Below the pieces are notes generated by a model. It made no database searches, had not been told where the DNA came from, and was given only the letters and a program-made list of their open reading frames with translations. Of a stretch of 64,000 bases of DNA, positions 4,859 through 51,280 are shown in pieces. This DNA is from a virus, in IMG/VR virus record IMGVR_UViG_3300042549_007727; one strand, written 5' to 3'. Position numbers and translations under genes: made by a program. How positions within the stretch are numbered: position 1 is the first letter of the stretch; the number at the start of each line of letters is the position of its first letter.

Positions 4859-4864
4859 CTTTAT

Positions 4865-4893
4865 TTGACTTTTTGCTTAATGCTAGGTATAGT
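4865..4893 (+). promoter_or_regulatory. Sigma70/SigA-type promoter
   Basis: TTGACT-17 nt-TATAGT upstream of the glycosylase gene. Confidence 0.6.
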
Positions 4894-4921
4894 CTAAGTA
4901 GCTTTCTGAAAGGAACTATTT

Positions 4922-5410: not shown

Positions 5411-5458
5411 TTTGTAATTTACGGTATAGTACATAAAACTTGACTTTAGAATCTTAAT

Positions 5459-7305: not shown

Positions 7306-7307
7306 AT

Positions 7308-8785: not shown

Positions 8786-8836
8786 AATTTCTCCTAGGGT
8801 TAAACCTTAGGTTTATGCTACTACATGTTTTGTAGT

Positions 8837-9217: not shown

Positions 9218-9407
9218 AGACTATGCTAGATTCCTATAAAGTTGAGCTTAATTATTAACTAGTTTACCCTAATATGATTGATGCTATTTAAATACCTGTG
9301 TCTACCAATAAATTAGTGGCAAATTATTCGTTTCTTGGTTTGCATTCAAGACTATTCTGTGTATGATGTTCTTACTGGTGTTCTTAATGACGTAAAGGTT
9401 TAAATAA

Positions 9408-18885: not shown

Positions 18886-18886
<1 letters not shown>
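17705..18886 (-). CDS. Collagen-like fibre with C-terminal T4 gp34-like repeat domain
   Basis: GPT repeats; [13 protein letters not shown]...GW C-terminal domain. Confidence 0.75.
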
Positions 18887-22720
<3,834 letters not shown>

Positions 22721-22792
22721 GCGACTGTCCCTCAGGATAGAGTATCCCTTATATTTTACCTGAGTTGCGCCATAGTGATTAACTAGAAGTGG

Positions 22793-23467
22793 CTAGCCTT
22801 GGGCATTACCCTGCTTCCACTCCTCCTGTTGAATTCTCTGCTCTTCTCGGACTTTTTCAATCTCTGCTTCCCACTCTGCTAGGCGCTCCTCCGAATACAC
22901 GGATTCGGCATAGTCCCAAAAAGCCCCTATAGTGTGCCGGGTCCCTGATTCTACCTTTTTAACCTGATGCACGTTTAGGATGCCTCCGGGGAACGTAATT
23001 AGCTGCCCGGCTTTAGGCTTAATTGTCAGATCGTGATCACGGAAGTCTAGCTCCCCACCCTCATAATCATCATTTATATATAGAAGACATACCAATTTGC
23101 TCTTTTCCCAGGCTGACCAGTTGCCTTCCATATCTGTGTTGTCAGAGTGGAATGGTGCATATGCACCTTTTTCCCACTTCTGGGCATGATTAGAGACTGA
23201 CTTTACTGGACGTTCATGGGCATCCTCTACATACTCTTGGAGCCTGTCAGCAAGTTTACCCAAATAGTCTCTGGGTAGCCCGTATTTTTCTAGGTTTGGG
23301 TCATCTGGAAGAATGCTCATGCCATATGACTCATAAAAAGCTGACATACTCCATGGGTGATCTGGGTCATTAAAGTAGTTTATAATTTTTTGTTGGTCTT
23401 CTAGCGGGATAAAATCATCATAATAAATGATGTCATCTTTAAAAAATTGTTTATTTTTATCTGTCAT
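22793..23467 (-). CDS. 2OG-Fe(II) oxygenase (prolyl-hydroxylase-like)
   Basis: HSD, YINDDYEGGEL, H...GTR. Confidence 0.9.
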   Translation of the reverse strand: MTDKNKQFFKDDIIYYDDFIPLEDQQKIINYFNDPDHPWSMSAFYESYGMSILPDDPNLEKYGLPRDYLGKLADRLQEYVEDAHERPVKSVSNHAQKWEKGAYAPFHSDNTDMEGNWSAWEKSKLVCLLYINDDYEGGELDFRDHDLTIKPKAGQLITFPGGILNVHQVKKVESGTRHTIGAFWDYAESVYSEERLAEWEAEIEKVREEQRIQQEEWKQGNAQG

Positions 23468-23924
23468 TTTTACTATCTCCTGTGTAGCCAGTATTTAGGA
23501 AAAATCTTTCTGGGTCAAAACGCTGGTTGTCTTTAGAGAACAGCTTAACAGTCTCTAGTATTAGATAATTGTAACTGTCCGAAGCCATACCGTCTTTTAT
23601 GCTATTAAGTATCTCCGACATTTTATTGTAGTCATCTCTAACAAATACGCACTCTCCTCCCCGGGGTCGTTTTAATATCTTTTCATGAACTCTACCGGTA
23701 GGTTCATATAACGTTACAGTCAAAAATTCCTTAGCAAAACCCCAGTCTGTGTAGGCTGCGTAGCCAGTTGCGGCGTCTATTGCATTGTCATAAAAGTATA
23801 TAGATCTGGCTGGAGACTCCCCGTCGCGGGCAACTGTGAGCATGTAAGAGTCTCCAGCGCCTCTAGATACTTTAGCTTTATATTCTTCAACAAGTACGCC
23901 ATTGATAGCGTTTAGTTCGTTCAC
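23457..23924 (-). CDS. Hypothetical protein within the oxygenase array
   Basis: 155-aa ORF overlapping both neighbours. Confidence 0.65.
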   Translation of the reverse strand: MNELNAINGVLVEEYKAKVSRGAGDSYMLTVARDGESPARSIYFYDNAIDAATGYAAYTDWGFAKEFLTVTLYEPTGRVHEKILKRPRGGECVFVRDDYNKMSEILNSIKDGMASDSYNYLILETVKLFSKDNQRFDPERFFLNTGYTGDSKNDR

Positions 23925-24799
23925 TCTAAATAGCTATCTTTTAGTTCGCCTGACTCTAAGAGTCTGTAATATTCTCCAATAGTCATTCTTTGGTGGAGTA
24001 CCGGATCTTGAATGGTTAAATCTCTTCTTTTTCTTCTAACTTTTTCAAGCTCTTCGAAAGCTGGACCGTATTTTTCTTTTAATCTTTTATAGTCTTCAGA
24101 TGCTTCCTCTTCAAAAATCCAATACAGTCGGACCATATATTTTGAGGCTTTTTTAATATTCATTACCCCGTGGTAGTACGGCGGGGTAGATGGGAACATT
24201 AAGATATCTCCTGCTTCTGGTTTGTAAAATATTTCTTTGACTACCTTTTTATTGTCTTCCGGGTCAGTTATTCTAAAGTTTATATCCCCGCCCTCATAGT
24301 CGTCATTTAGATAGACAACTGCAGTTATCCCAAACTTTTCTCCTGGGTACTCTGCTATTTCTTGTTGGTAGTCTGTATGATGTCTCATGGTTCTACCATC
24401 GTTGTCCGCCTCGTTAAACTCTGGTACATCTGGAAAATACCTAGCAACCCCCCAAGTTGGAGCCTTCCATGACGGCAAATAAGTTTTAGTTTCGTTTATG
24501 TATATGCTTGACGCATCATAAAAAAGATCAGCAATCTTTCTTTTATAGGGGTCTGGTTCTTCGGAAAACTCCTTAGTCCAGGCTTCTTTAGTCGGGAATT
24601 CTGTGGTTGTGCCCCAAGAGAGACCTGAATCAGCTATCATTTCCCCAAAAATAAACCAAGACACCCAGCGGGCTTTTTGCTCTGGGTCTGTAAGATAATA
24701 ATCTATATATTCTTGAGGATTTTTTACCCATTTATTAAAAATCCATATTTTATCGTCTAGTTTTTTTATATTTAAACTTTCTAAGGTTGTATCATCCAC
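23921..24799 (-). CDS. 2OG-Fe(II) oxygenase
   Basis: HTD, YLNDDYEGGDI, YHGV...SKY. Confidence 0.9.
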   Translation of the reverse strand: MDDTTLESLNIKKLDDKIWIFNKWVKNPQEYIDYYLTDPEQKARWVSWFIFGEMIADSGLSWGTTTEFPTKEAWTKEFSEEPDPYKRKIADLFYDASSIYINETKTYLPSWKAPTWGVARYFPDVPEFNEADNDGRTMRHHTDYQQEIAEYPGEKFGITAVVYLNDDYEGGDINFRITDPEDNKKVVKEIFYKPEAGDILMFPSTPPYYHGVMNIKKASKYMVRLYWIFEEEASEDYKRLKEKYGPAFEELEKVRRKRRDLTIQDPVLHQRMTIGEYYRLLESGELKDSYLE

Positions 24800-24801
24800 T
24801 T

Positions 24802-25446
24802 TTAGTCTGCACTTCCTGTTTTACTGTTATTCTTCCAGTGGTGGGTTATTAACATTTTTCGGCCCTTTACTATTTTGCAAGACTGGTGAAGATATGGCAA
24901 GGTAGATGGGAACATGACAACGCTTCCGGCTTTAGGCTTAATTTTTATGTCAATTTGAGGATCAACAAAGTAAAGCTCTCCACCCTCATAGTCGTCATTT
25001 AAGTACACTACTATTGTGTATGTAATATCTGAGTTGTGCTCATTCCAGTCAACGTGGGGGCCCATATACTGACCTTCAAAATATTTATTGATTCCGTACT
25101 TTGTCTCTGGAAAACGTAAAGCATGGTCCGCAAATGACAGCATTTCTTCGCTAATGTTGTACAGTTCAGCGTACTTGCTTGCGCAAGATGACATACTAGA
25201 TATAAGAGTATTGAGGACGCGATCTGCAGTAGTTTTAGTTGCTAGATCGGACTCGATGTCTAGTAGTTTTTTCTGCATATACTTAATCTCGCCGTATGGA
25301 TCTGTCTCTGTTCCATACCCATACCAAGTATTCCACTCTGTAATTGCAACACTATTAGTAGACTCTATATCAGCTATTAATTTATCGATGTTATCTATTA
25401 CCCCGGGGAAATAGACAATTTTGTCATAAGGTATTTCGTAGTTCAC
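24802..25446 (-). CDS. 2OG-Fe(II) oxygenase
   Basis: HVD, YLNDDYEGGEL, LHQS...GRK. Confidence 0.9.
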   Translation of the reverse strand: MNYEIPYDKIVYFPGVIDNIDKLIADIESTNSVAITEWNTWYGYGTETDPYGEIKYMQKKLLDIESDLATKTTADRVLNTLISSMSSCASKYAELYNISEEMLSFADHALRFPETKYGINKYFEGQYMGPHVDWNEHNSDITYTIVVYLNDDYEGGELYFVDPQIDIKIKPKAGSVVMFPSTLPYLHQSCKIVKGRKMLITHHWKNNSKTGSAD

Positions 25447-25448
25447 GG

Positions 25449-26225
25449 CTACTCCGACGTGAGCTGCTCTGCATCATCAGCAAGTTCCGCTGATCCAGCA
25501 TTATATTTCTTACGATCTTCTTCATTGTTTATGTCAAAATCATCAATAAAAACAAAACCAGGAAAAATGTACTTATCTCCCTTTTTCATTTCGTGTACTC
25601 GGTGCATAAATGGGTGGGTAGACGGGAATATTAAAGCTGATCCTGGTTTTGGTTTTAGCCAAAAATCAATTCTGTCTTTATTTCGTGGATCGTGCACATC
25701 TTCTAGTGGCTTCATCTCTGAGTACTTAGGGTCTCTTAGGTCATAGTCTCTAATTGCAAAAGAGATTTCCCCGCCCTCGTAGTCCTCGTTTAGATATAAA
25801 ACTATGGAGTACTTTAGAGTTCTATCTCCAGCCTGAGCATCAAAGTGAGCACCCATAGAGCAGCCTTCTATGTATTTCATAATTCCCACAAACGGAGACA
25901 TGTTTGGGGATCCTTCTAGATTTCTATCTCTGTAATATGCTTCAGCAACATCAGTCACTGCCTTTTTTATAGCAAATATTGCAGTTTTTACATCTTCTTT
26001 TCTGGGAGATGTTAAATTTTCAATTGCATCTGGATTAAAGTCTTTTTTGCCCCCAAATTCATGGTAGGACTTACTGTTGGATAGCCAAGGCCCCCATGGT
26101 GGTATAGCTGGGTAAACTGACTCGTCTGAGTCAAGCTCCTCTATTAGCGCAATTAGCTCTTCTGGATTAGCAATTACGTCTTGGTAGTAAAAAACTTCTT
26201 CGTGTAGTTTTTCAGCTAAAAACAT
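25449..26225 (-). CDS. 2OG-Fe(II) oxygenase
   Basis: HFD, YLNEDYEGGEI, MHRV...GDKY. Confidence 0.9.
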   Translation of the reverse strand: MFLAEKLHEEVFYYQDVIANPEELIALIEELDSDESVYPAIPPWGPWLSNSKSYHEFGGKKDFNPDAIENLTSPRKEDVKTAIFAIKKAVTDVAEAYYRDRNLEGSPNMSPFVGIMKYIEGCSMGAHFDAQAGDRTLKYSIVLYLNEDYEGGEISFAIRDYDLRDPKYSEMKPLEDVHDPRNKDRIDFWLKPKPGSALIFPSTHPFMHRVHEMKKGDKYIFPGFVFIDDFDINNEEDRKKYNAGSAELADDAEQLTSE

Positions 26226-26279
26226 GTCTTTCCTATCTACGGTTTAGTTGTCCTATGTACATTCTATATTAATTTGTAG

Positions 26280-26930
26280 CTATTCTTTGTTGGCGGCATC
26301 TACTATTTTTTGGGGTATATTGCCTAAAACATTAGTTACGTACTTTACCCCGCTGTTTATGGTCCTGGACTCATGTAAAAATGCAGCAGGAAATATAACT
26401 ATGCTTCCTGGGGTCGGTTTTATAGCGACCCCCTTGTCCGGGAAGCTTAGCTCTCCGCCTTCGTAGTCGTCATTAAAGTATATTGATGCTGTGTACTCCA
26501 CTGGGTCTAGTGATTCTGAGTCAGGGTGAGGCCCTAGGTGCTCGCTATCAAAATATTTTTTTATTGCTATATGATCGAGTCCGGAGTCTCGATATTTAGA
26601 TGCCCAGGTAGTAGCAGTTTTTTCTGGCAGCCCTATTGCTCGGTAGTAGTCAGCAAAAGAGTTGTCTAACGCTGTATATATGTTATAAATCACGTTAGAA
26701 ACTTGATCTTTAACTTTAGCGTCTGATTCAAGGTTATTTTTGCTTGGTGTTAGTTCTTTCATTAGACCGTATTGATGAACATTATTGGAACCACCTGAGA
26801 GCCAAGGCAGCCACTCACCGGCAGCAATACTATTTGTATTCTCTAGTAGTTCCACGACATCAGCAGGAGTTTTTAGTGCATATGGAAAATGTACTATTTT
26901 TTCTGCTATAAGTTCGTAGTTTGATGTCAT
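26280..26930 (-). CDS. 2OG-Fe(II) oxygenase
   Basis: HPD, YFNDDYEGGEL, LHES...GVKY. Confidence 0.9.
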   Translation of the reverse strand: MTSNYELIAEKIVHFPYALKTPADVVELLENTNSIAAGEWLPWLSGGSNNVHQYGLMKELTPSKNNLESDAKVKDQVSNVIYNIYTALDNSFADYYRAIGLPEKTATTWASKYRDSGLDHIAIKKYFDSEHLGPHPDSESLDPVEYTASIYFNDDYEGGELSFPDKGVAIKPTPGSIVIFPAAFLHESRTINSGVKYVTNVLGNIPQKIVDAANKE

Positions 26931-27608
26931 TTATGGCTGCTTATCTCCGGTGTGTTTTAGAATGGTCCAAAAAAATGGACTAACATATCTAATACCAGAT
27001 ATAACTTCGGTGACTCCATGAATATAGTTCATGTCTCCAGGGAAAAAGTATGCTGCACCTCGTTTAGGTTTAAACTGGATTCCTTGATTAGGGAAATACA
27101 GTTCTCCACCTTCATAGTCATCATTTATGTAGAATAGTCCAGCAATGTCATAGTACGGAAAGTCGTTTGGTTTTCCTCTATTTTCGCCTTCATGTAGTTC
27201 TTTGTCAGCGTGAGGATTTTGATACTGTCCCGGTAACCATCTAACTAAAGCTGGTGGAGTTGGTAGGGCATCTACTTTTAAGAATTTGTCCACTTCGAGC
27301 TTAAGTCTTTGCTGCATGCCCTCAATAACTTCTAGTACTCGAGGATCTGACTTATTTAAGCTATTTGTAGTTGCTACTCGATCCTCCCAGTAAGACGCGT
27401 CATATATGCATACGCCATCTTCGTTATAGTGTGACTCGGTGTAGTCCCAGATGGTATTATTTCTAGCAAAATTGTCTAAAAACTCCAGCTCTTCGTCGGT
27501 CATAAAATTTTCTAGAGTCACAATATTGTTAGCAGAATCTCCAAAAAACCCGGAGGGGGTTATAGAAACTCGCTCATTGAACTGTAAGTTATTGTTAGCT
27601 GCATCCAT
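26931..27608 (-). CDS. 2OG-Fe(II) oxygenase
   Basis: HAD, YINDDYEGGEL, IHGV...GIRY. Confidence 0.9.
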   Translation of the reverse strand: MDAANNNLQFNERVSITPSGFFGDSANNIVTLENFMTDEELEFLDNFARNNTIWDYTESHYNEDGVCIYDASYWEDRVATTNSLNKSDPRVLEVIEGMQQRLKLEVDKFLKVDALPTPPALVRWLPGQYQNPHADKELHEGENRGKPNDFPYYDIAGLFYINDDYEGGELYFPNQGIQFKPKRGAAYFFPGDMNYIHGVTEVISGIRYVSPFFWTILKHTGDKQP

Positions 27609-27624
27609 AGTTATATCCTACTCC

Positions 27625-28356
27625 CTACTCGTATGTACGACGAGTCCAGACTTCCTTTTGGTAGACTCCTCCGTTTGGTACTCGGTATTTGTTGCTATTT
27701 TCTTGATTCTTTTTGACCATTTCTTCATAGCTAATTTTTGTTTCTACTTCAGAAATCCAGTTTTCTCTTTTAAATGGAAGGATCTGCGCATACGGAGTTC
27801 CTGCTGGTATGACTCCCGAAAAACCTTTAGCTATAAAAAATGGCATTGTGCCTGGAAGATGTACCTTGTCGTTATCAATTACTCCGCTAGTTGTCAGAAA
27901 AGGTAGCTCAAATCTGTTAAATGGCTGGGCATAAAGTGCGCTGTATCCTTCTGGTAGTTCTACTGCCCAGTCAGACCACCAAGCAAAGTGTTCTTCATGA
28001 TATCCGGACGGTGCTACAAACTGAGACATCGGTGGTCGTTCCCCTACAAAGTCTTGCATTTGAGGATTTAGAACTTTTATTTTAGGTTTGCCGGCTACCT
28101 CTAAAATTTCTATGTCGCAGGGGGTTCTATACACATAACCGGTGCCCATGATGTCGAAAACTGCAGGGCATGCTTTCCAAGTAGGAATCTTGCCGCCGTC
28201 TCGGGGATCCACCCAGTGTTCATTTGTGTGGGGATTTACTGCAAAACGATCAGCTTTTCTGTACCACTCTGGAATTGTTTTTATTGTAGGTTTAGGGGCT
28301 GAGGGGCTGTCTTTAGTTAGCCAAGGTCTATTAACTACAAATTTAATTTTGTTCAA
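27625..28356 (-). CDS. DUF6065-like protein (dUTPase-like beta fold suspected)
   Basis: IPEWY, TWKACPAVFD.M.TGY, LPEGYS.L..QP.N, IPAGTP.AQI.PF.R. Confidence 0.6.
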   Translation of the reverse strand: MNKIKFVVNRPWLTKDSPSAPKPTIKTIPEWYRKADRFAVNPHTNEHWVDPRDGGKIPTWKACPAVFDIMGTGYVYRTPCDIEILEVAGKPKIKVLNPQMQDFVGERPPMSQFVAPSGYHEEHFAWWSDWAVELPEGYSALYAQPFNRFELPFLTTSGVIDNDKVHLPGTMPFFIAKGFSGVIPAGTPYAQILPFKRENWISEVETKISYEEMVKKNQENSNKYRVPNGGVYQKEVWTRRTYE

Positions 28357-29104
28357 GGTCCCCCTCCTGAGTAGCCTCTACTTCATAAGTGTTTTTAGTT
28401 ACTGGGCACGTGACAGTTTTTAACTTAATTTTTTTTGTTTCGTGGTGACCTACTACGTCTCCCCGATAGTCTAATCCGTCTCTATACATTTTTGACCAGT
28501 CGCCAACTCTATTTCTGAGCTCTAAAGCAGCGCCATACCTTTTTACTTCGTCCCAGTGGTCCTGGCCAACATATTCATCAGATATTTGTAACTCATAGTC
28601 GTTTTCTAATGATGTTAAAGATATTGGCATTACCGAAGCTACAGGAGTGCCAGCTGGGATGGTAATTTCTATGTTTGGTTCTGTGACTCTCCAGGCTATT
28701 GGAAGCCCGTGAATATAAAAAGACGTGCTTATTAAGGTTGTATAGCAGTGGGCACCGCGAATAAACAGATTAGGGGTAGGCATTGTTAGCATAGTGGTTT
28801 GATCGTCGGTTTTAAATATCAAACCAGATACAAAACTTATAGTTGCATTTCCCCTGTTAGTGTCTACGTATTTATGTCCCTTTAGTACAGTTATGTGGTC
28901 TGGTGTGGTGTCTGTAACTCCGTCCCAAATAAAAACTATGTCTTCGGGGAAAGATATCCCCCAGCCGAGTCTATTAGTTACACTTAGGGGAAAGCACATA
29001 TACGCGTGCTTTTCCGGTGTTTCATCCATCCAATCGCGTCTAGCTTCAAGCTGCTCTATGTTGGCGCAGTCTTGCTCGTACTTTTTTACATATATGCTTT
29101 TCAC
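28343..29104 (-). CDS. DUF6065-family protein
   Basis: RDWMD.T..KHAYMCFPL..TNRLGW, IPAGTPVA..MP. Confidence 0.7.
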   Translation of the reverse strand: MKSIYVKKYEQDCANIEQLEARRDWMDETPEKHAYMCFPLSVTNRLGWGISFPEDIVFIWDGVTDTTPDHITVLKGHKYVDTNRGNATISFVSGLIFKTDDQTTMLTMPTPNLFIRGAHCYTTLISTSFYIHGLPIAWRVTEPNIEITIPAGTPVASVMPISLTSLENDYELQISDEYVGQDHWDEVKRYGAALELRNRVGDWSKMYRDGLDYRGDVVGHHETKKIKLKTVTCPVTKNTYEVEATQEGDLEQN

Positions 29105-29862
29105 TAATTTCCTGTTTCTTCATAGAACTGAGGAGTGTGAAACTTTTCTGAATAGTCAAGCATGGTTACCATAGAGTACTTAGTCCCAGACTTCACTGGC
29201 ATTGCTCTGTGTGGGTACATAAAGTTTGACGGAAATACGTAGAGATCGCCCTTCTTAGGCTTAATTGTGATGTTCTGAAGTCTAAAATACAACTCTCCAC
29301 CTTCGTAGTCGTCATTGGGAAACCCGACTAGTGACACTACGCAGTTATATGAGTACCCGTGATCGTGGTGCTCTTGGAAGTGTTGTCCGGGGCCGTACTT
29401 AACGTAGTTAGTTGCTTCCCAGTAGCGAAGCTCGCCTATGTTAAATCTTCTTGTATAGTCTTTGACCGCTTGAAGCTCTTTATACGTTACGTCATCAGCA
29501 AGCTCTTGCAGCGCAAGTCCAGCTGGCGATGTGTCATGAGCAATGTCAGATTTTTTGTATTTAAAGTCTACGCAGTCGCGATACTCTGGCATCTTCATCG
29601 CATACCCAACCATTGCTTCTTGATATTCGTAGTGGTTGTCTGGATTAGTTATTACCGACTCTAGTCTGTTGATTATATCTAAATCGTCTGTTAGAACGTC
29701 TCTGTACACAACAATACCTGGCGCAACTTCTTCTGAGCTACTCCATGTTTGTTTTTCTACGGTGTACCAAGCAGAGAGCCTCTCTGCAACTAATTTCTGT
29801 TTTTCAGCTCCCTCGGTTTCTTGGGGCTTATCTGAAAAGTTTTGTGTGTTTTCCATAACCAT
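29104..29862 (-). CDS. 2OG-Fe(II) oxygenase
   Basis: HHD, NDDYEGGEL, PHRA...GTKY. Confidence 0.9.
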   Translation of the reverse strand: MVMENTQNFSDKPQETEGAEKQKLVAERLSAWYTVEKQTWSSSEEVAPGIVVYRDVLTDDLDIINRLESVITNPDNHYEYQEAMVGYAMKMPEYRDCVDFKYKKSDIAHDTSPAGLALQELADDVTYKELQAVKDYTRRFNIGELRYWEATNYVKYGPGQHFQEHHDHGYSYNCVVSLVGFPNDDYEGGELYFRLQNITIKPKKGDLYVFPSNFMYPHRAMPVKSGTKYSMVTMLDYSEKFHTPQFYEETGN

Positions 29863-29866
29863 ATCC

Positions 29867-30610
29867 TTAATACGTTAGTTTATATTCTTCAATTACTGGA
29901 GCAACTCTGTTGTTTACATTGTCTCTGTCGTTATAATCCGTCATAACTACTACTGAGTATTTGACACCAGATTTTATGTCCTGTGACGAGTGCTCATATA
30001 TGAAAGTTGATGGAAATACAAGTACATCTCCTGCTTTAGGTTTTATTGTTAAATTGTCCATTCGAGGAAACCAAATCTCTCCGCCTTCGTAGTCGTCATT
30101 TAGGTATACAACTACAGAAATTGTGCAAACATATGTTGGACCGTGATCTGCGTGTATTTTAAAGTGAGTTCCTGGCCCGTCGTACTTTACAAAATTAAAT
30201 GCTTCGTACCATCTCATTCCTACGCCCCAGGAATCAGAATAATCATCTACGCATTGGCGCACTGCTTGGAATACTTTTTCATGAAGATCGTAAAGCTCCG
30301 AATTTTCTGAGTCGCGGGGGCCTAGCGATGTAGAGTTAACTTTAAAATCTTGTGCATTTCTAGCGCTTAGAAGCACATCGGCTGACGTTGTCACTCTTGC
30401 TCCACCCCAAGTATATTTACCTGTGCCGCTCAAGTTAGACTCTAAAGTTTTTATGTATTCTCTACCCTGCTCTTCTGTGATGGCCCCGCGGTACAGGTTC
30501 ACTCCTAGTGCTGGATTAGACACAGTAATATTTGGGTTTCTGGGAGCAGGGCGGTCTGGCATCCGATTATTTGAAGTTTCAGATCTATCTTTTGTGAACC
30601 AGTCGTTCAT
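29867..30610 (-). CDS. 2OG-Fe(II) oxygenase
   Basis: HAD, YLNDDYEGGEI, EHSS...GVKY. Confidence 0.9.
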   Translation of the reverse strand: MNDWFTKDRSETSNNRMPDRPAPRNPNITVSNPALGVNLYRGAITEEQGREYIKTLESNLSGTGKYTWGGARVTTSADVLLSARNAQDFKVNSTSLGPRDSENSELYDLHEKVFQAVRQCVDDYSDSWGVGMRWYEAFNFVKYDGPGTHFKIHADHGPTYVCTISVVVYLNDDYEGGEIWFPRMDNLTIKPKAGDVLVFPSTFIYEHSSQDIKSGVKYSVVVMTDYNDRDNVNNRVAPVIEEYKLTY

Positions 30611-30730
30611 GTCTAGCCTCGCTTCTGTTCTTTAAACTAGTTTATATTTAAAGGTTGTAGCGATAGTCTATCAATAAAAAGGGAAAATGCCTAATTAAAC
30701 TTGGTGTTTTACAAGTTTTTTGTAAGCTTT

Positions 30731-30768
30731 AGGCAGGCCAAGCCAGGGGTAGTGACTTAGCCTGTCCT
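30731..30768 (-). terminator. Strong hairpin without U-tract directly after the Hint gene stop (I-shaped terminator or mRNA stabiliser)
   Basis: Minus-strand AGG(A)CAGGCTAAGTCA pairs with TGGCTTGGCCTGCCT. Confidence 0.5.
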
Positions 30769-32104
30769 ATGCTATTACTATAAAGGATCTTGTGATGAAC
30801 CAAGGCTGAGGAGAAGTCTTTACTTCGTAAACTGTAGACTCAGCTTCGTCTTTTTCTATAGAGACAACTACTGTTTCTGACACTACTCCGTCTGCTGCTA
30901 CTCCTAGTAGAACGTCTCCTATTTCGACGTCTTCAGCGTTTTTGTAGCTTATTCCTTCAGATTCTTTTACAAGAATTGGCTGAGTTACAGAGTAGTCCTT
31001 ACCTAGATCATTAAATCCGATTAGCACGGCGGATCTAGCTTCTACTGAGACTATCTCTGCTTCGATGAGAGCTACCTCTTCACTTAAGAAGCTGGACTGC
31101 TTAGTCTCTAATAGCGCTGACAGATCTATGTGTCGACTGTCAACCGTCAACACTTTGTCTCCAACTTTTACATTCTCTGCTTTTTCCCAGCCGTTTGGGG
31201 TCAGGATGTCTGTTGTTGGTGCCAAACAGAATCTTACCTTGAAGCTTGGGAAGAACGGGAACATCGGTGGGAAGAACGGTGGGAAGAACGGGAACATCGG
31301 TGGGAAGAAAGGTGGGAAGAAAGGTGGGAAGAACGGGAACATCGGTGGGAAGAAAGGTGGGAAGAACGGTGGGAAGAACGGGAACATCGGTGGGAAGAAC
31401 GGTGGGAAGAAAGGAGGGAAGAAAGGAGGGAAGAATGGTGGGAAGAATGGTGGGAAGAATGGAGGGAAGAATGGAGGGAAGAATGGCGCAGTAGTAATCG
31501 ACGCAGAGTAGCTAGACCACTCCGAGGCACCATTTGCATTTTTAGCTCTAACTCTATACTGCTGAGCGGTGTTTGCTTCCTGAGTCACTGTTGCTGAAGT
31601 GCCAGTTACGTTTGAGGAGTTTGACTTACTATCGGTACTTTCCCAGTCATATCCAGTTATGACAGAGCCGCCAGTACTAGGGGCTGACCATGAAACAATG
31701 TCTTCGCCATTACTTGTTGTTACCGTTGGAGTGTTTGGAGCCTGGGGCACTGTTGTTATAGTTACGCTTGAAGACGCGGAAGACTCAAGAGATGTTCCAG
31801 CTGAGTTTGTGGCTGTTAATACGAAGGTGTATCCGGTATTAGAGTCCAACCCGCCGACCACGATAGGGGAAGCAGATCCAGTAAGATTGGTTGCTGTTGT
31901 GTCAACAGTAGTGCCATTTTTGTAAGCAACTATGGTATATCCGGTAGCTTCTGGAGAGCCTTCTGGTAGAGCAAAAGCTACTGATGCAGCACCATTATCA
32001 AAAGCTCTAGCAGTCCCTACGTTGGTTGCAACAACATTAATTGGGGCTTTTGGCTCCAAAGAGTCGTTCTGCTGTTGGGAACGCTTACCAGGTGATTTGC
32101 TCAT
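30767..32104 (-). CDS. FN3-FN3-(PFFP)n repeat-Hint domain protein
   Basis: Two FN3 domains (GLDSNTGYTFVLTATNSAG; WSAPSTGGSVITGY...YRVRAKNANG), 80-aa Pro/Phe repeat, Hint domain starting CLAPTTDILTPNG. Confidence 0.85.
   Translation of the reverse strand: MSKSPGKRSQQQNDSLEPKAPINVVATNVGTARAFDNGAASVAFALPEGSPEATGYTIVAYKNGTTVDTTATNLTGSASPIVVGGLDSNTGYTFVLTATNSAGTSLESSASSSVTITTVPQAPNTPTVTTSNGEDIVSWSAPSTGGSVITGYDWESTDSKSNSSNVTGTSATVTQEANTAQQYRVRAKNANGASEWSSYSASITTAPFFPPFFPPFFPPFFPPFFPPFFPPFFPPFFPPMFPFFPPFFPPFFPPMFPFFPPFFPPFFPPMFPFFPPFFPPMFPFFPSFKVRFCLAPTTDILTPNGWEKAENVKVGDKVLTVDSRHIDLSALLETKQSSFLSEEVALIEAEIVSVEARSAVLIGFNDLGKDYSVTQPILVKESEGISYKNAEDVEIGDVLLGVAADGVVSETVVVSIEKDEAESTVYEVKTSPQPWFITRSFIVIA
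30770..31228 (-). other. Hint (Hedgehog/intein) domain, residues 293-445
   Basis: Block A C-L-x-x-x-T-x-I, AENVKVGDKV, second half AEDVEIGDVL, block F VYEV...WFI; no terminal His-Asn. Confidence 0.75.
31247..31486 (-). repeat. Coding tandem repeat: 17 x PFFP (12 bp) with 4 interspersed PMF (9 bp)
   Basis: Pattern (PFFP)8-PMF-(PFFP)3-PMF-(PFFP)3-PMF-(PFFP)2-PMF-PFFP; variation among PFFP units is confined to Pro wobble positions. Confidence 0.95.
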
Positions 32105-32130
32105 AATATGTCATTCTACCTTAGATTTAA

Positions 32131-32991
32131 TTAAGCCTTTAGGTCTCCAAAGACCAGCCAAGTGTTTGCAGCTACCTTAGTTAGGGATACTGAAGAATTT
32201 AATGCTCTAAAGATCAATCCAGGTGTATACAGAAGGTCTACAGATGCTCCAGCTACTATAGACGCGCCTCCGGCTCCTACGCTCTGGTAGAAGTTCAGGG
32301 TAGTCCCAATTGGGAAAGTGATTGAGTTGGTAGTATCTGCGTCTACTGTAACGCTATAAGCTCCGCCAATTGCAGTCAGTGCGTCTCTGTATGTTAGAGG
32401 CTGAGGCAGGGTTGACGTAGTTGCGTTAGCTGTAATAGCTGCCTTAATCGGGGTAAGAGAAGGTACGCCCTGCAACGTCTGAGTTCCGTCTGAGAAAGCG
32501 ATGCCGCTAGCACCAACGGTTACTGTTCCAGTAAATGTTGGAGATGCTTTAGGTGCAAGAGTTGTGTCAGTTGGGTGTACGTGATCTGCTCTAGCATACT
32601 TTAGAGATGTACCTGCAGCCGCCGTCCCGTTAGCCACTGGAGTGGCCGAAGCAGCTTGACCCACAACAAACGCAGTAGTTGCGAGCTGCGTGTCATTCTG
32701 GTCAGCGGTAGCTGTTGGAGCTGTTGGTTCTCCTGTAAAAACTGGGCTGACAAGTGGTGCCTTAGCGTCTAGCTGAGTTTGAATTGAAGAAGTTACGCCA
32801 TCTAGGTATCCGACCTCTGTAGACGTTACTGGTGATGCTACTAAGTACCCATCTTCATCCGAAATAATGTCGCGATCGACAGTGTACTTAGCGCGGTCCG
32901 GGGTCCAAACTTCTCCCGACCAAAGCCAAGTTCTGCCATTGTAGGTATATGCGTCACCAACTTCTGGTTCTGCAGGAAAGTTAATTGCCAT
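32131..32991 (-). CDS. Fibre/adaptor virion protein
   Basis: MAINFP start at 32991 overlaps the upstream stop; [31 protein letters not shown]-terminal FPIGT...TWLVFGDL domain. Confidence 0.75.
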   Translation of the reverse strand: MAINFPAEPEVGDAYTYNGRTWLWSGEVWTPDRAKYTVDRDIISDEDGYLVASPVTSTEVGYLDGVTSSIQTQLDAKAPLVSPVFTGEPTAPTATADQNDTQLATTAFVVGQAASATPVANGTAAAGTSLKYARADHVHPTDTTLAPKASPTFTGTVTVGASGIAFSDGTQTLQGVPSLTPIKAAITANATTSTLPQPLTYRDALTAIGGAYSVTVDADTTNSITFPIGTTLNFYQSVGAGGASIVAGASVDLLYTPGLIFRALNSSVSLTKVAANTWLVFGDLKA

Positions 32992-35900
32992 TATGCCTGT
33001 GCCTCTGTCCATGATAGACGACCGGTAAATCTAGCTGTGTTGGATCCGGAAGATGTGTTTGTTACAACAATCGTAAGAACGTCCGGCCCATCCGGGTATA
33101 TTCCTGTTCTAGATGAAGAACTTCCTCCACCAAGAATTGAGTTTCCAAGGTCGCGTAGAGTTCTTAGCGAGATAGAGTCTGTACCCTGAGACAAGAAACC
33201 ACCAGTGATTTCTCCACCAGAAACAGTGACGTTACCGTTTACACTGTAGTCAGCAATCTGAGCTAGCGAGGAGTTAGCTGTGCCTGCATCAGCAAAGTTT
33301 GGTATAGTCCATGTTGCAGATACAGACGGCGTTGCGTTTAGGTAGGCTCTTACTAGATAGTTTGTACCAGCATCCTGCGTACTCACGCCGAGCTCAGAAA
33401 GCTTTAGCTGCATTCTGTTAATTAGCTCTCTTTGGCCGAATAGGGCACCTACACCGTTATCGGCTGAAGGAGCTAGTCTCACGGCAAATAGAGCTTTAGA
33501 TTGTCCAGGAAGAATTGAAACAGGATTAGTTTGACCATAGGTGAAGATAAGAGAGTTATCCTCATCAAAACGACCATCCATAATCACCGAGGTACCCCAG
33601 TGGGAAATCGAAGGTGCGAATGTTGGGTATGCCAACTCTACTGAGGTAGGAGATGGGGCGCTGTAAGTGTATGCCTTAGCTTCAGCACCCATCGGTGCAA
33701 ATATCAACGTTGGGTTAGATCCAGTAAGAGCGGTGTTTAGCGTGATAACTGTTCCAGCTATGTTGGTTATGTAAGCACCGTCCGGCACTGGGCTAGGGGA
33801 TGCGCTAGAAAATACGCGCTGGCCAACTTGAAGTCCAGTGGCACTAGCAACAATTCCTGAGTTTGACCCAATAGTCCAAGTGGAAGAGACACCAGAAGCA
33901 CCAGCTTTACCACGGACTAGTCCAGTGAAGGTAGTTGCTGTCTTGCCTGTGTAGTTTACATACTCGCTAAATAGTCCAGCTTCGTTGTTTGTAGTACTAG
34001 GCTTGATAATTAGTGTTCCTGTAGGAGGGAATCCGGCGGTAGATAGAACAGTTAATGTTTCTCCTGTGTCCGACAAGCTAGCATCTAGTCTAGTTGTCGG
34101 TGGCAGTGTTGAAGTTTCGTAGCGAGCTGGCAAGTTACCAGAGCGCATGTACGCTTCGTTGTTAACGTTGTTATTCTTCATCTTGTGGACGTAGAATACG
34201 TTACCGTCTATACCACGTAGGCCCCAGCGGATAAAGCCGGCACCGTACCAGGAGTAGTCTACATAGAACATTTGCATCTTAGTAAAGTCAACGTTAAATC
34301 CTGAAGGACCGGTACCGTCTGCTTTATCTAAGTTCCACTCAGACTGAGGGATTCTAGTGTCTATGGTTTTTGAGATATTTACGTGATCCGCGCTAGCTCC
34401 TCTGTAGGAAGGCGAAATTGTAAAGTTTGGTGTAACTGACAGATCATCAATAGCAATTACTCGGTATGACTGGCCCCGGATAATTACGTAATCTCCAGGG
34501 ATTAGCTGACTGGAGTAAGAAGTCGGGAATGACTCGTCTGTTCTAGTTACTACGTTAGATCCCTGAACTACTGATGAGCGTCCTGATAGCTGCTGGGTAG
34601 ATGAGCGCTTTACTACATACGCGTCTTGTCCGTCAATTTCCCAGAAAAGTCCGTTTTGAGCATCAAAAGTTCCTAATCTAGTGCTTGATCCGTACCATGA
34701 TGTTACGTTTAGGTTTACAATTCCAGTAGCTGGACTAGTAGTGGATTCTGGTAGCTCGTAAGTAAAAGTATTAAAGCTAGTTACCTGATCTACTGAAAAA
34801 GTGCCATTATATGCCGCCTCATTTGCACCGGAAACCAAAATTGAAGTGCCAGGCAGAATGTTGTGCTGCTCTTTAGTTGTAACTGTCGCGGTAGTTCCAG
34901 ATGAAGTAATACCATCAATAGTTGCATATGGCTTAAGGATTGTTCCAGACGAAACCTGTAGACCCTTACCTGACTGGTATCTAAAATAACGACGGGTTTG
35001 TCTAATAGCCTGTTCGTAGTTAGAGCTAGCGTTAGTTGAGAATAGAACTCCACCGTCGAAAGATCTGTGTAGGAACTGAGCCTGAGGACGTACATAAATA
35101 GACGCGTTTGTTGCAGTCAAGCCAGACGGAGTGCCTTCGGTTGGGTCTGCGTAGAATACAAATGTTGTTGGAGTTGCTACAGTTGCAACTCGATAAGCTC
35201 CGTTAGGTGGGTTAGTACCTGTGATACCAGCAGTAGCTATGGTGTTACCAATAGAAAGACCGTGGGGCACTGTAGTAGTTACAGTTACTTTTAAGCCAGA
35301 TACGGCTAGAGTAGGTGCTCCACCAATTCTTGCATCAGTGTAGATTACCGCTTCATAGATGGCAGTCTTGTTTGGGTCAAGAATTGAGGTAACGGTGGTC
35401 TTGTTTTGGGCGCGACCTAGGTAGGTAAATGATGCAGTACCACCACCGGACTCAATAATAAAGTTTCCATTGCCAGCAGCAAGGAAGGTGTCCTGAACTG
35501 TAATCGCTGTTCCTGTAGGAGGGGCTACTCCAGCTATAGCTGAACCTGAGGTCCATACCTCTGTTCCAGTTGTTGCATTTACTACAGAAAATGTAGTTGA
35601 AGTTAGTGTTCCAACTATTTGAAATGTTCCGTTGTAGCCTGAAACAGAAGATCCAGATATAGTTACATACTGTCCAGATCTAAATCCATGAGAGGATGAG
35701 GTTGTGTAGGTTACATATCCTGTAGATGGAGTGCTTGGGTCTGCACCAGTTACAGTTTTAGTAGTTGTAGTTAGAGCTACAGTAACAATTCTTGCATCTG
35801 TATTCATTGTCATTGAAGCTATGTTTGTCATTGGGGATGCAACCTGGAAAGCAAACGGCCTATTGTTAGTTACACCTAAGTTTTCCCATTTCGACTGCTG

Positions 35901-36029
35901 GGTACCATACTCGAAGTCGGTATCAATAAGCGCTTGAGCGGTTGAGGTACGTAGTTTATTTACCGGATCGGTAAGAACTTCTGTTGGGTTAAAACGGCCA
36001 TCTGATGCCGGAAACTGTTGAATACTCAT
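32991..36029 (-). CDS. Large virion structural protein, paralog B
   Basis: Shares ALIDTDFEYGTQ..KWE, RQTRRYFRYQSGKGLQ, AYMRSGNLPARYET and SWTEAQA with 14709-17705. Confidence 0.7.
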   Translation of the reverse strand: MSIQQFPASDGRFNPTEVLTDPVNKLRTSTAQALIDTDFEYGTQQSKWENLGVTNNRPFAFQVASPMTNIASMTMNTDARIVTVALTTTTKTVTGADPSTPSTGYVTYTTSSSHGFRSGQYVTISGSSVSGYNGTFQIVGTLTSTTFSVVNATTGTEVWTSGSAIAGVAPPTGTAITVQDTFLAAGNGNFIIESGGGTASFTYLGRAQNKTTVTSILDPNKTAIYEAVIYTDARIGGAPTLAVSGLKVTVTTTVPHGLSIGNTIATAGITGTNPPNGAYRVATVATPTTFVFYADPTEGTPSGLTATNASIYVRPQAQFLHRSFDGGVLFSTNASSNYEQAIRQTRRYFRYQSGKGLQVSSGTILKPYATIDGITSSGTTATVTTKEQHNILPGTSILVSGANEAAYNGTFSVDQVTSFNTFTYELPESTTSPATGIVNLNVTSWYGSSTRLGTFDAQNGLFWEIDGQDAYVVKRSSTQQLSGRSSVVQGSNVVTRTDESFPTSYSSQLIPGDYVIIRGQSYRVIAIDDLSVTPNFTISPSYRGASADHVNISKTIDTRIPQSEWNLDKADGTGPSGFNVDFTKMQMFYVDYSWYGAGFIRWGLRGIDGNVFYVHKMKNNNVNNEAYMRSGNLPARYETSTLPPTTRLDASLSDTGETLTVLSTAGFPPTGTLIIKPSTTNNEAGLFSEYVNYTGKTATTFTGLVRGKAGASGVSSTWTIGSNSGIVASATGLQVGQRVFSSASPSPVPDGAYITNIAGTVITLNTALTGSNPTLIFAPMGAEAKAYTYSAPSPTSVELAYPTFAPSISHWGTSVIMDGRFDEDNSLIFTYGQTNPVSILPGQSKALFAVRLAPSADNGVGALFGQRELINRMQLKLSELGVSTQDAGTNYLVRAYLNATPSVSATWTIPNFADAGTANSSLAQIADYSVNGNVTVSGGEITGGFLSQGTDSISLRTLRDLGNSILGGGSSSSRTGIYPDGPDVLTIVVTNTSSGSNTARFTGRLSWTEAQA

Positions 36030-48201: not shown

Positions 48202-51279
<3,078 letters not shown>

Positions 51280-51280
<1 letters not shown>

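Follow-up and report, generated by a model that had tools for sequence, protein, structure and literature searches.

The window, that is, the whole 64,000-nucleotide stretch of viral DNA analysed here, carries between two blocks of fibre genes twelve genes that all lie on the minus strand, at the coordinates and in the layout that an earlier note had read from the letters. The gene that closes the upstream fibre block codes for a 445-aa protein made of two FN3 domains, a Pro/Phe tract and a Hint domain. The array that follows consists of eight intact P4H-like 2OG-Fe(II) oxygenases, two DUF6065-like genes and one unknown gene. The features are as follows.

32131..36029, minus strand: upstream fibre genes of 293 aa and 1012 aa, which precede the tract gene in related phages (synteny)
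30767..32104, minus strand: FN3-FN3-(Pro/Phe tract)-Hint gene, 445 aa (ORF call; two Pfam fn3 stretches, E 5e-9; phrog_6977, minor tail protein, E 2.8e-7)
31490..32104, minus strand: its N-terminal segment (GKRSQQQND.LEP, with invariant N-terminal residues) and two FN3 domains, aa 1-205
31247..31486, minus strand: its 80-aa Pro/Phe/Met tract of PFFP and PMF units, aa 207-286 (composition, codon usage)
31226..31246, minus strand: junction SFKVRF (aa 287-292) / Cys293, predicted site of N-S acyl shift and cleavage
30770..31228, minus strand: its C-terminal Hint (bacterial intein-like) domain, aa 293-445, 153 aa (profile, fold, Pfam)
29867..30610, minus strand: ox2, P4H-like 2OG-Fe(II) oxygenase, 247 aa, core (PF13640, E 1.9e-11)
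29104..29862, minus strand: ox3, P4H-like, 252 aa, core, in minimal modules too (PF13640, E 1.3e-13)
28343..29104, minus strand: DUF6065 protein, 253 aa, core, in minimal modules (PF19541, E 2.4e-26)
27625..28356, minus strand: second, divergent DUF6065-like protein with a conserved Cys, 243 aa (phrog_7084)
26931..27608, minus strand: ox6, P4H-like, 225 aa, most conserved core oxygenase (PF13640)
26280..26930, minus strand: ox7, variable member, 216 aa (PF13640, E 2.6e-8)
25449..26225, minus strand: ox8, variable member with an insert in the DSBH, 258 aa (PF13640, E 6.7e-11)
24802..25446, minus strand: ox9, variable member, 214 aa (PF13640, E 5.5e-15)
23921..24799, minus strand: ox10, variable member with a C-terminal helical extension, 292 aa (PF13640, E 8.7e-10)
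23457..23924, minus strand: unknown protein, 155 aa, recurring in larger arrays (viral hypothetical clusters only in Atlas)
22793..23467, minus strand: ox11, final array gene, 224 aa (PF13640, E 1.6e-10; phrog_61)
17705..22720, minus strand: downstream block, a 119-aa protein (phrog_1084) and three collagen-like (GPT/GAT) fibre genes

The tract (aa 207-286) counts 38 Pro, 40 Phe and 4 Met; every Phe is encoded by TTC, and Pro by CCA, CCT or CCG. It is kept at the protein level in at least 120 IMG/VR loci, in which its unit and length vary. The family of such tracts may well be large and confined to phages, with (Pro-Pro-[x]-aromatic-aromatic)n at or near the C-terminus as its hallmark, a delimitation of which we are about half convinced. 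In many of its members the tract is internal to a large fibre protein, and in others the C-terminal cap is a non-catalytic Cys-rich knot or acidic tail. The 1012-aa product of the upstream block is 41-47% identical to virion structural proteins of S-PM2 and S-RSM4. We consider it likely that the 445-aa protein is virion-associated; that it serves this uncultured phage as an accessory protein associated with the fibres, with the Pro/Phe tract as its business end, is a reading on which we are evenly divided.

As judged from profiles and a structural model, the C-terminal 153 aa are a genuine Hint fold, as the earlier note had held. Pfam gives sub-threshold matches to Hint_2, Hom_end_hint and Intein_splicing, and a profile of nine homologues compared with PDB sequences finds the bacterial intein-like (BIL) domain 2lwy first (E 4.1e-8) and mini-inteins next. 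The AF2 model has a pLDDT of 89.7, and every top Foldseek match is an intein, a BIL or a Hedgehog Hog domain (prob 1.0, TM 0.6-0.8). Homologues P0001-P0004 are 49-58% identical to the 445-aa protein over the Hint part. The position of Cys293 is invariant in alignment A1; of 40 Hint-bearing relatives, 31 have Cys and 7 have Ser at position 1, so that 38 of the 40 keep a nucleophile even though the Hint subtypes share only about 27% identity. The domain ends with FIVIA at the stop codon, without a His-Asn pair and without a C-extein.

The Hint domain is an optional, exchangeable cap that does not belong to the defining parts of the system. It is found in 40 of 182 tract proteins, so that the self-processing precursor heading the array, which the earlier note had put foremost, describes a minority variant. 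Where present, it starts 0-7 residues past the tract in 27 of 38 cases, and a search of 1.84 billion representatives gave 305 clusters at E<=1e-10, with the Hint at the extreme C-terminus, right after Pro/aromatic low-complexity repeats, in nearly all full-length matches. Among close relatives the Hint is of type 1, of type 2 (copies of which end in His-Asn plus 1-3 residues) or missing, and the cap therefore appears to be swapped freely. Hint-less orthologues from three separate metagenomes, 59-62% identical to the window protein in the N-terminal part, end in ...GFRVRAV, ...RFRVRAV and ...GFRIRFV, which align where the window has ...SFKVRF|C.

Judging from the fold, the conserved nucleophile and these natural variants, we slightly favour cleavage at Phe292-Cys293. 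Cys293 would attack the carbonyl of Phe292 and the thioester would then be resolved, most simply by water; release of the Hint would leave ...SFKVRF-COOH, a C-terminus of the kind found in the Hint-less orthologues. The cap probably serves to hold the tract, which is very hydrophobic, in a soluble or unassembled state until maturation. The N-S acyl shift is normally driven by the block-B His. The window Hint reads S-V-T-Q in block B, with Gln where His is expected, and since it also has no terminal Asn, cleavage is plausible and not assured; with Gln at this place it may be slow or absent. A catalytically dead Hint, retained as a structural tip or as a receptor-binding or assembly domain, would affect the cleavage step only. 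The same His is replaced by Gln in 21 and by Glu in 5 of the 40 relatives, and since other members of the family bear non-catalytic caps, a cap need not be removed. We nevertheless consider a dead domain rather doubtful: the nucleophile persists at position 1 despite the divergence of the subtypes, the domain always adjoins the tract and runs to the stop codon, the junction coincides with the C-terminus of the Hint-less orthologues, and some inteins splice without the block-B His.

All eight oxygenase genes score above the Pfam gathering score for PF13640, and their products retain HxD...H, the Lys/Arg at +10 and N(D/E)DYEGG(E/D), i.e. the iron and 2OG ligands. The best solved relatives of the oxygenase profile are P3H1 (E 3.9e-9) and the PBCV-1 P4H 5c5t (E 6.7e-8), further ones being the P4H enzymes of B. 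anthracis and Chlamydomonas, LH3 and PHD2; the earlier assignment as prolyl-hydroxylase-like thus holds, the nearest enzymes being protein prolyl and lysyl hydroxylases. Orthologues of ox2, 53-76% identical, come after the tract gene, and ox6 is 55-86% identical in close lineages and 39-45% in minimal modules. The DUF6065 protein (28343..29104) has an invariant Cys in alignment A4 and at least 586 relatives in IMG/VR. The Atlas matches of the second, divergent protein (27625..28356) are DUF6065 clusters, and hhalign aligns it to A4 at 95%; its AF2 model (pLDDT 84.9) is a dUTPase-like beta-barrel that reaches Z 9.5 to dUTPases in VIA, where the top 22 matches all belong to the dUTPase/dCTP-deaminase superfamily. 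For the 155-aa protein Pfam and PHROG scans gave no family, and copies 43-67% identical occur in related arrays. Eight paralogous enzymes seem too many for so simple a repeat, an observation that counts against the tract as their substrate. Elsewhere in cyanomyovirus genomes, P4H-like oxygenases also occur singly at scattered sites.

Tract and enzymes are not paired by chance, and the pairing recurs in most of the related phage contigs examined. When 87 tract ORFs of IMG/VR were picked by DNA pattern alone, 76 were followed within 4 kb by homologues of the oxygenases or of DUF6065 (11 had no array within 4 kb), as opposed to 2-3 of 58 with such genes upstream. Conversely, when 30 loci were anchored on DUF6065, 27 proved to have a tract ORF in the 5 kb upstream, and only 11 contain any collagen-like ORF. 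The co-occurrence and synteny that the earlier note had named as a check are thus strongly positive in both directions, despite rearrangements of gene order. All seven loci found with the tract protein keep the array, every duf5-anchored locus with enough flank has an FN3-tract gene upstream, and by tblastn the aa 1-205 part stands immediately upstream of the array at almost every related locus. Gene order differs between lineages, and the linkage persists through at least six gene orders or orientations and several architectures of the tract protein, down to minimal modules that consist of no more than DUF6065 and two oxygenases together with the tract gene and one fibre gene. In S-PM2 and S-RSM4 the homologous fibre gene is present, with neither tract gene nor array beside it. 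Since a single broad group of uncultured phages, whose fibre genes are homologous, supplies all the loci, the linkage must in part be inherited synteny. Throughout the family the tract gene may close a fibre block, and the core after it may almost always be two or three P4H-like 2OG-Fe(II) oxygenases plus a DUF6065 protein with dUTPase fold and conserved Cys, to which larger arrays such as the present one add oxygenases, a generalization that we give an even chance.

From this gene linkage and the family assignment we think it somewhat probable that the tract protein is what the enzymes act on. The oxygenases would hydroxylate the tract during late expression, at prolines and possibly at other residues, by analogy with collagen P4H and with the Chlorella-virus P4H that modifies the virus's own proline-rich repeats. 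The whole sequence of events, hydroxylation of a fibre-linked tract and removal of an optional Hint cap, is one we can accept only with reservations, our judgement standing midway. The first alternative sees in the array an auxiliary island, of small-molecule (secondary-metabolite) or host-directed function, that occupies a conserved insertion hot spot where the fibre operon ends and has the Pro/Phe protein as a mere neighbour. The variable gene content of the arrays indeed looks island-like, and a haloarchaeal-virus duf5 homologue adjoins thymidylate synthase and DNA polymerase rather than fibres. A homologous array in cyanophage Syn9 has halogenases and no tract protein, and secondary-metabolite synthesis was proposed for it in 2010 (PMC2938197); Sullivan et al. 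2010 proposed 2OG or nitrogen-stress roles, or DNA repair (PMC3037559). We regard such an island as unlikely here: the linkage to the tract survives the rearrangements described above, the array is co-oriented with structural genes and embedded among them, its genes include no scaffold-building enzyme (NRPS, PKS, ATP-grasp), and the nearest solved relatives work on prolines and lysines of proteins.

Less likely still is that the oxygenases hydroxylate other fibre proteins, i.e. the downstream collagen-like GPT/GAT proteins or the large upstream fibres, instead of the Pro/Phe tract. Three collagen-like genes, the alternative candidate substrates, lie directly downstream, collagen is the classical substrate of P4H, P3H and LH, and the related Syn9 array comes after fibre and Gly-rich fibre-assembly genes. 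However, the collagen-like genes are more loosely linked to the array than the tract gene is (11 against 27 of the 30 loci), the minimal modules do without them, and the collagen repeats of the window have Pro in the X position and not in Y. Finally, a RiPP-like pathway releasing small modified Pro/Phe peptides, as the earlier note had suggested from a repetitive 'core' beside many tailoring enzymes and from Hint chemistry able to free the upstream polypeptide, is very improbable, as the 'precursor' is a 292-aa folded protein, encoded where a fibre operon ends, in which a conserved N-terminal segment and two FN3 domains precede the tract, the tract lies inside a large fibre protein in many members of the family, the array has no protease, RRE, cyclase or exporter, and Pfam and PHROG scans of the twelve genes gave no match to RiPP recognition, leader-protease or export genes.

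It is instructive to compare the proposed hydroxylation of a capped or uncapped tract with known systems. As for the cap, BIL domains (Clostridium thermocellum BIL, PDB 2lwy) and Hedgehog Hog (1at0) have the same Hint fold and Cys1, and no homing endonuclease. Like Hog and B-type BILs, the window Hint is without the terminal Asn, so that presumably only N-terminal cleavage or transfer is possible. It differs in the Gln of block B, in forming the very end of the protein, without C-extein, and in being dedicated, as a type, to the C-termini of Pro/aromatic low-complexity tracts in proteins of phage fibre loci. Self-cleaving C-terminal intramolecular chaperone domains are known from endosialidase and T5 pb1. 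The 'transient chaperone caps' described for phage tail fibres and tailspikes (PMC10579305) offer a parallel as removable C-terminal fibre modules needed only until assembly. Those domains, however, are not Hint folds and use another cleavage chemistry, and the chaperone role of the Hint is one that we infer.

As for the polymer, collagen with its prolyl 4- and 3-hydroxylases and lysyl hydroxylase is likewise a repetitive proline-rich structural polymer served by P4H-family enzymes, and P3H1 and LH3 belong to the solved relatives closest to the window oxygenases; the tract, in contrast, has no Gly-X-Y repeat and half of its residues are aromatic. Chlorovirus PBCV-1 also combines a P4H-type 2OG oxygenase with repetitive proline-rich proteins of its own on which the enzyme acts, and its P4H, the second-best solved relative of our profile, hydroxylates Pro-Ala-Pro-Lys repeats (PMC3634087). 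Here the host is prokaryotic, the repeat is Pro-Pro-Phe-Phe without Ala or Lys, there are 2-13 paralogous predicted enzymes instead of one, tightly linked to the candidate substrate gene and to DUF6065, and some candidate substrates bear a Hint cap.

The closest precedent is that of tandem dioxygenase arrays with a dUTPase-fold Cys protein in cyanophage Syn9 (gp41-gp54), described by Iyer, Abhiman, de Souza and Aravind 2010 (PMC2938197). Syn9 gp43 fits that Cys protein best and is homologous to the 27625..28356 product (hhalign 95.4%, E 1.7e-8), and both arrays come directly after fibre genes; contrary to the earlier note, which had put forward a candidate new system, the system is therefore not entirely new. 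Syn9 differs in having a JmjC/MINA-type member and two tryptophan halogenases and in lacking a Pro/aromatic tract protein; the tract protein and its Hint cap are absent from the 2010 description (PMC2938197). The recurrent pairing of polymer and enzymes thus offers a testable substrate for phage oxygenase arrays that have been known since then.

The twelve genes described in the earlier note are present in the gene listing of the window, and, co-oriented as it had stated, all of them lie on the minus strand. The gene that heads the group is

FN3-tract-Hint gene, 30767-32104, minus strand, 445 aa: conserved N-terminal segment, two FN3 domains, tract and Hint domain

The two FN3 domains are recognized by Pfam (fn3, E 5e-9), and the protein matches phrog_6977 'minor tail protein' (E 2.8e-7). 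The tract (aa 207-286) consists of 80 residues of PFFP and PMF units (38 Pro, 40 Phe, 4 Met) and is followed by the hexapeptide SFKVRF, by Cys293 and by 153 residues up to the stop. Phe is encoded by TTC throughout, Pro by three different codons. The same protein-level repeat is retained by many diverged relatives with different codons and lengths, so the reading frame of the tract is real; the antisense ORFs that run over it (GKNG and WEER frames) were rejected as by-products of the repeat. After a gap of 156 nt come eight P4H-like oxygenases (ox2, ox3 and ox6 to ox11), one DUF6065 protein (duf4), one divergent DUF6065 relative (duf5) and a 155-aa protein for which no family was found in Pfam, PHROGs or Atlas. 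The fibre genes upstream of the tract gene encode proteins with 41-47% identity to virion structural proteins of two cyanomyoviruses, S-PM2 and S-RSM4, and a small phrog_1084 protein and three collagen-like genes lie downstream of the array. A promoter and terminator scan of 22000-33200 gave counts no higher than in shuffled sequence.

As to its wider surroundings, the array is located between two paralogous fibre modules (fibre proteins of about 1000 aa at 14709-17720 and 32991-36029), alongside which there are several collagen-like GPT/GAT genes (13707-14705, 17705-22361). By reading of the translations, the replication genes at 1-12086 (SNF2-type helicase C-terminus, PD-(D/E)XK-like exonuclease, ATPase, SSB-like protein, 892-aa primase-helicase) are not T4-type, though the fibre proteins are similar to those known from T4-like cyanomyoviruses. 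A class I ribonucleotide reductase (NrdA/NrdB, 48202-51280) and a Nol-like carbamoyltransferase (53516-54952, phrog_1601, E 1e-103) are encoded downstream of the fibre genes, and a 731-aa ORF at 56251-58446 was labelled a candidate katG in the first reading.

The linkage between tract gene and array was examined from three independent anchors, i.e. the 445-aa protein, the duf5 protein and a DNA pattern. With the 445-aa protein, seven IMG/VR loci were found, and in all of them the fibre genes are followed by the tract gene and this in turn by ox2, ox3, DUF6065, duf5, ox6 and so on to ox11. With duf5 (64 loci), an FN3-tract gene stands directly before the array wherever the upstream sequence suffices. 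The third anchor, a DNA pattern for PFFPPFFPPFFP alone, is blind to the neighbours and detected at least 120 loci. The co-occurrence of tract and oxygenase genes, which the earlier note had singled out for checking, came out positive: among the matches listed, oxygenase or DUF6065 homologues lie within 4 kb downstream of 76 out of the 87 tract ORFs for which 2.5 kb or more of downstream sequence is available, as opposed to just 2-3 out of 58 on the upstream side, where fibre genes are found (44 out of 58). Several of the 11 exceptions belong to loci that have a second tract gene with an array. The reverse search, starting from the DUF6065 alignment, gave at least 586 relatives in IMG/VR, and among the matches listed 27 out of 30 dereplicated loci (5 kb on each side) carry a tract ORF on the same strand within 5 kb upstream. 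The association of tract and enzymes is real and well above chance.

The linkage is also kept where the genes are differently ordered or oriented, in six or more arrangements (ox2-ox3-duf4-duf5-ox6; ox2-duf5-ox3-duf4-ox6; ox3-duf4-(duf5)-ox6; ox3-duf4 preceded by three copies of ox6; ox3-duf4 preceded by an inverted ox6; duf5-duf5-ox), and across several architectures of the tract protein, which may be of about 125 aa and devoid of FN3, may have a single FN3 domain or two, or may be a large fibre whose tract is internal, the units being PPFF, PPYF or PPGFFA. The smallest module that recurs comprises a tract gene, DUF6065 and two oxygenases, one of the ox6 type and one of the ox3 type. A cellular origin of tract proteins was considered and rejected. 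Of the 28 pattern matches in 185,579 prokaryote genomes, some are (PFF)3 strings that arise by chance in spurious frames, and the others lie on phage-like MAG contigs, where fibre and oxygenase genes are again the neighbours; genuine tracts are found there only on phage-like contigs, and the system is therefore viral. Among 50,697 GenBank phage records there was no megablast match to the 9.3-kb region. No tblastn match was found in GenBank phages for the DUF6065 protein, nor, at E≤1e-5, for the 445-aa protein, a search in which the low-complexity filter masks the repeat and which covers the remainder of the protein.

The C-terminal domain of the 445-aa protein is a Hint domain, as had been proposed from the sequence. 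Its AF2 model (pLDDT 89.7) has an intein, BIL or Hedgehog Hog domain as every top Foldseek match in the PDB (prob 1.0, TM 0.6-0.8), and a profile of nine homologues finds 2lwy, the bacterial intein-like domain of Clostridium thermocellum, as its best PDB sequence (E 4.1e-8), followed by mini-inteins. The Pfam matches of the domain in the window and in five relatives are all below threshold but consistently of the Hint clan. The block A nucleophile is present: Cys293, followed by L-A-P-T-T, is invariant in the Hint alignment, and of 40 Hint-bearing relatives 31 have Cys at position 1 and 7 have Ser. The Thr-x-x-His of block B is absent from the window protein, which reads Ser-Val-Thr-Gln, the Gln aligning with the His of HPFYV in 2lwy; of the 40 relatives, 21 have Gln here, 13 His, 5 Glu and 1 Thr. 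In inteins and the A-type BIL the domain ends in His-Asn and is followed by a C-extein, whose +1 nucleophile serves for splicing, whereas the window protein ends ...FIVIA at the stop, without either of them (an HN-like motif ends 17 of the 40 relatives). N-terminal cleavage or transfer is therefore the most that it would allow, and in this respect it is like Hedgehog and the B-type BILs, which carry out N-terminal cleavage or transfer only.

It is also an optional domain, borne by 40 out of 182 dereplicated tract proteins sampled from IMG/VR, and the weight that the earlier note laid on it was too great. Where present, the Hint domain starts 0-7 residues past the tract in 27 out of 38 proteins, and it comes in at least three subtypes: the one of the window (SFKxxx|C ... 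FIVIA), an intein-like type 2 (PPRF(G)|CIEE ... GGYLVHN plus 1-3 residues, HN(K/KL/LKV), or ending in HQN) and a Ser1 type. In the Ser1 type (L251, L266, L267, L294, L296) the tract is followed by KS|VG(V/I)NTLLRTP..., the block-B His is kept, and the proteins have an extra 30-aa tail (...DPDG(S/P)GPL) beyond the Hint domain rather than ending there. Some of the tract proteins that lack the domain stop right after the tract, very often with ...FK, and others end in short basic-hydrophobic tails, acidic tails, Cys-rich knots or further domains. Short Cys-rich tails (4-12 Cys, e.g. CPECTKGCPC) replace the Hint domain or the free FK end in about 32 out of 147 tract proteins (loci L047, L049, L066, L077, L084, L090, L094, L099, L104 and L176 among them), and they may be knottin-like or metal-binding tips.

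The nearest Hint-less orthologues, from three independent metagenomes, end in ...GFRVRAV, ...RFRVRAV or ...GFRIRFV, and these ends coincide exactly with the junction ...SFKVRF|Cys of the window; the mature product predicted for the window thus agrees with what its Hint-less cousins produce naturally. Among close relatives, in which duf5 is 72-81% identical, the Hint is of type 1, of type 2 or missing; the cap is freely exchanged. A Hint profile search of 1.84 billion representative proteins gave 2190 clusters at E≤1e-3, of which 305 reach E≤1e-10, so the domain family is large. Among the best 150 of the 2190, the full-length single-domain matches nearly always have the Hint domain at the extreme C-terminus, and by inspection about three quarters of those not in the PP-aromatic class have another low-complexity Pro/aromatic repeat just before the Cys (FGFTP, PPDFTP, poly-Pro, PVAAPT). 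The Hint subfamily appears to be specialised for capping the C-termini of low-complexity tracts. Other low-complexity tracts that it caps at the very C-terminus of FN3-type proteins are FGFTP/FGAFGFTP, PPDFTP, poly-Pro, PVAAPT and IIATP (P0011; P0005-P0154). At one such locus (L298:2425-5691) an FG-repeat-Hint gene comes after an Mtd_N fibre gene and is followed by three paralogous genes for proteins of 215-231 aa with the motifs WHEH...GHPH...RITIAYD, which look like divergent DSBH oxygenases (phrog_81 E 6e-4 and PF13759 E 0.2 only).

We lean slightly towards the view that Cys293 forms a thioester whose resolution would free the Hint domain and leave ...SFKVRF-COOH. That the domain is dead and merely retained, as the loss of the block-B His might suggest, is a doubtful though still arguable reading, which would affect the cleavage step only; the invariant Cys and the ends of the Hint-less orthologues are to be set beside it. 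We speculate that the cap would hold the 50% Phe polymer soluble or unassembled until maturation. A bolder and quite improbable scheme is that another molecule would resolve the Phe292-Cys293 thioester with its amine or hydroxyl group and that the hydroxylated tract would in this way become C-terminally ligated to a virion protein or a host envelope component, the tract itself being a new, non-collagen, hydroxyproline-stabilised fibre material. Such a ligation would have parallels in Hedgehog-cholesterol transfer and in the BIL-mediated ubiquitin-like conjugation of Tetrahymena (BUBL), the PDB entry of which, 6y75, is among the fold matches of the Hint model.

All eight oxygenases exceed the gathering cut-off of PF13640 (31.8-56.5 bits vs 27). 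The iron triad His-x-Asp...His is kept (H153, D155 and H207, invariant in the oxygenase alignment A2), a 2OG-binding Lys or Arg stands at +10 from the second His in all eight, and so does the motif N(D/E)DYEGG(E/D) recur in each of them. The closest solved relatives of the oxygenase profile are human P3H1 (3.9e-9) and the PBCV-1 P4H 5c5t (6.7e-8), followed by the P4Hs of Bacillus anthracis and Chlamydomonas, PKHD/PiuC hydroxylases, the lysyl hydroxylase LH3 and PHD2; these solved relatives all act on protein side chains. The candidate substrate we infer from gene linkage alone. In our proposal the tract protein would be a fibre-associated virion component, which it probably is, and we think it rather likely that the array oxygenases would hydroxylate its tract. 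The core of the earlier interpretation, a candidate substrate linked to hydroxylases and furnished with a genuine Hint domain, is right according to the linkage counts and the fold.

Two other views of the array need to be discussed. According to the first, it is a small-molecule or host-directed island and the tract gene a mere neighbour. The linkage signal as a whole is in part inherited synteny, because all these phages share homologous fibre genes; on the other side stand the several gene orders across which the linkage is kept, and also S-PM2 and S-RSM4, where the fibre gene has a homologue but both tract gene and array are missing next to it. We consider this view unlikely. The second holds that the true substrates are collagen-like or other fibres. 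In the seven loci found with the 445-aa protein, ox11 is followed by a 119-aa gene and then by collagen genes, and a collagen-like ORF occurs in only 11 of the 30 dereplicated DUF6065 loci; collagen-like substrates are less probable still. Hydroxylation of the tract remains our preferred reading.

The two DUF6065 proteins are not read as dUTPases. The protein at 28343-29104 is a DUF6065 protein proper (PF19541, 93.1 bits vs a cut-off of 26.6, E 2.4e-26). The one at 27625-28356 has no Pfam match; it is related to the DUF6065 alignment by hhalign (95%, with the invariant Cys aligned), and its Atlas neighbours are DUF6065 clusters. Its AF2 model (pLDDT 84.9) is a dUTPase-like beta-barrel, which VIA-align superposes on 3t60 with Z 9.5 and an rmsd of 3.1 for 126 residues; dUTPases, dCTP deaminases or viral dUTPase-fold proteins fill all of the 22 highest rows. 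Foldseek against the PDB found none at E≤1e-3 (best E 1.7e-3), and a sequence profile of the DUF6065-like protein found no dUTPase and no relevant solved relative in the PDB. By reading of the sequence, a G-V-I-D-N-D stretch in it resembles dUTPase motif III, and the aligned stretch of the paralogue at 28343-29104 is without it. The idea of an active dUTPase was set aside because this motif-III-like stretch is present in one paralogue only. Relatives of the protein at 27625-28356 found by tblastn in cultured phages are confined to haloarchaeal tailed viruses of the HF1/HF2/HRTV group (24-30% identity), with 49 haloarchaeal virus records in all. One locus was inspected, that of Halorubrum tailed phage 7 (L010); there the homologue, gene 38, adjoins thymidylate synthase and DNA polymerase, and neither an oxygenase match nor adjacent fibre genes were seen.

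A linked, simple and repetitive candidate substrate makes the role of the phage oxygenases directly testable. Our interest in the system is high because a fifteen-year-old open question thereby becomes accessible to a simple experiment. Should the proposal be true, phages would hydroxylate fibre-associated proteins of their own, a new class would join the virion components that are modified after translation, and the tract would be a new Pro/aromatic structural polymer. If the processing is true as well, the Hint cap would be a dedicated intein-like autoprocessing device that matures, and possibly ligates, a phage structural protein.

Published reports count P4H-type and other 2OG-Fe(II) oxygenase genes among the 'auxiliary' genes that are abundant in aquatic phages, and a 2022 survey still termed the use of viral P4Hs 'cryptic' (PMC9301287). 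Of the 16 cyanomyoviruses treated by Sullivan et al. (2010), 14 were listed with more than one 2OG-Fe(II) oxygenase, for which the authors suggested DNA repair or functions related to 2OG or nitrogen (PMC3037559). The open-access literature searched contained nothing on Pro/Phe tracts, DUF6065 or phage-fibre Hint caps, and queries for PFFP, PPFF or FFPP repeats returned unrelated acronyms only. The array itself has a longer history than the first reading allowed, as a tandem dioxygenase array was described in Syn9 by Iyer et al. (2010), who proposed secondary-metabolite synthesis (PMC2938197). Like the array of the window, the Syn9-type array contains several tandem, divergent, classical 2OG-Fe(II) dioxygenases and a conserved-Cys protein of dUTPase fold; the best candidate for it is gp43, with which the protein at 27625-28356 is homologous (hhalign 95.4%, E 1.7e-8). 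It differs in having tryptophan halogenases and a JmjC/MINA-type member, families that are not found among the twelve genes of the window. In Syn9 (NC_008296.2, L297, 21068-43144) the array, gp41-gp54, comes straight after the fibre genes gp32-34 and the very Gly-rich gp36, gp38 and gp39, and two of its genes, gp46 and gp52, are labelled 'minor coat protein' in RefSeq. The Syn9 array thus directly follows fibre and Gly-rich 'fibre assembly' genes, yet is without a Pro/aromatic tract protein. The analogy to a RiPP cluster was overstated: the candidate substrate, encoded in a fibre operon, is no short precursor of leader and core but has 292 aa and two FN3 domains, Pfam and PHROG scans found no RRE, peptidase or transporter families in the array, and a RiPP-like peptide pathway, for all the resemblance of a repetitive protein next to many tailoring enzymes, is hardly credible. 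A closer parallel is the P4H of PBCV-1, which hydroxylates that virus's Pro-Ala-Pro-Lys repeats (PMC3634087), and it is with such a virus-encoded P4H acting on the virus's own repeat substrate, and with the tandem dioxygenase arrays of cyanophages, that the finding belongs.
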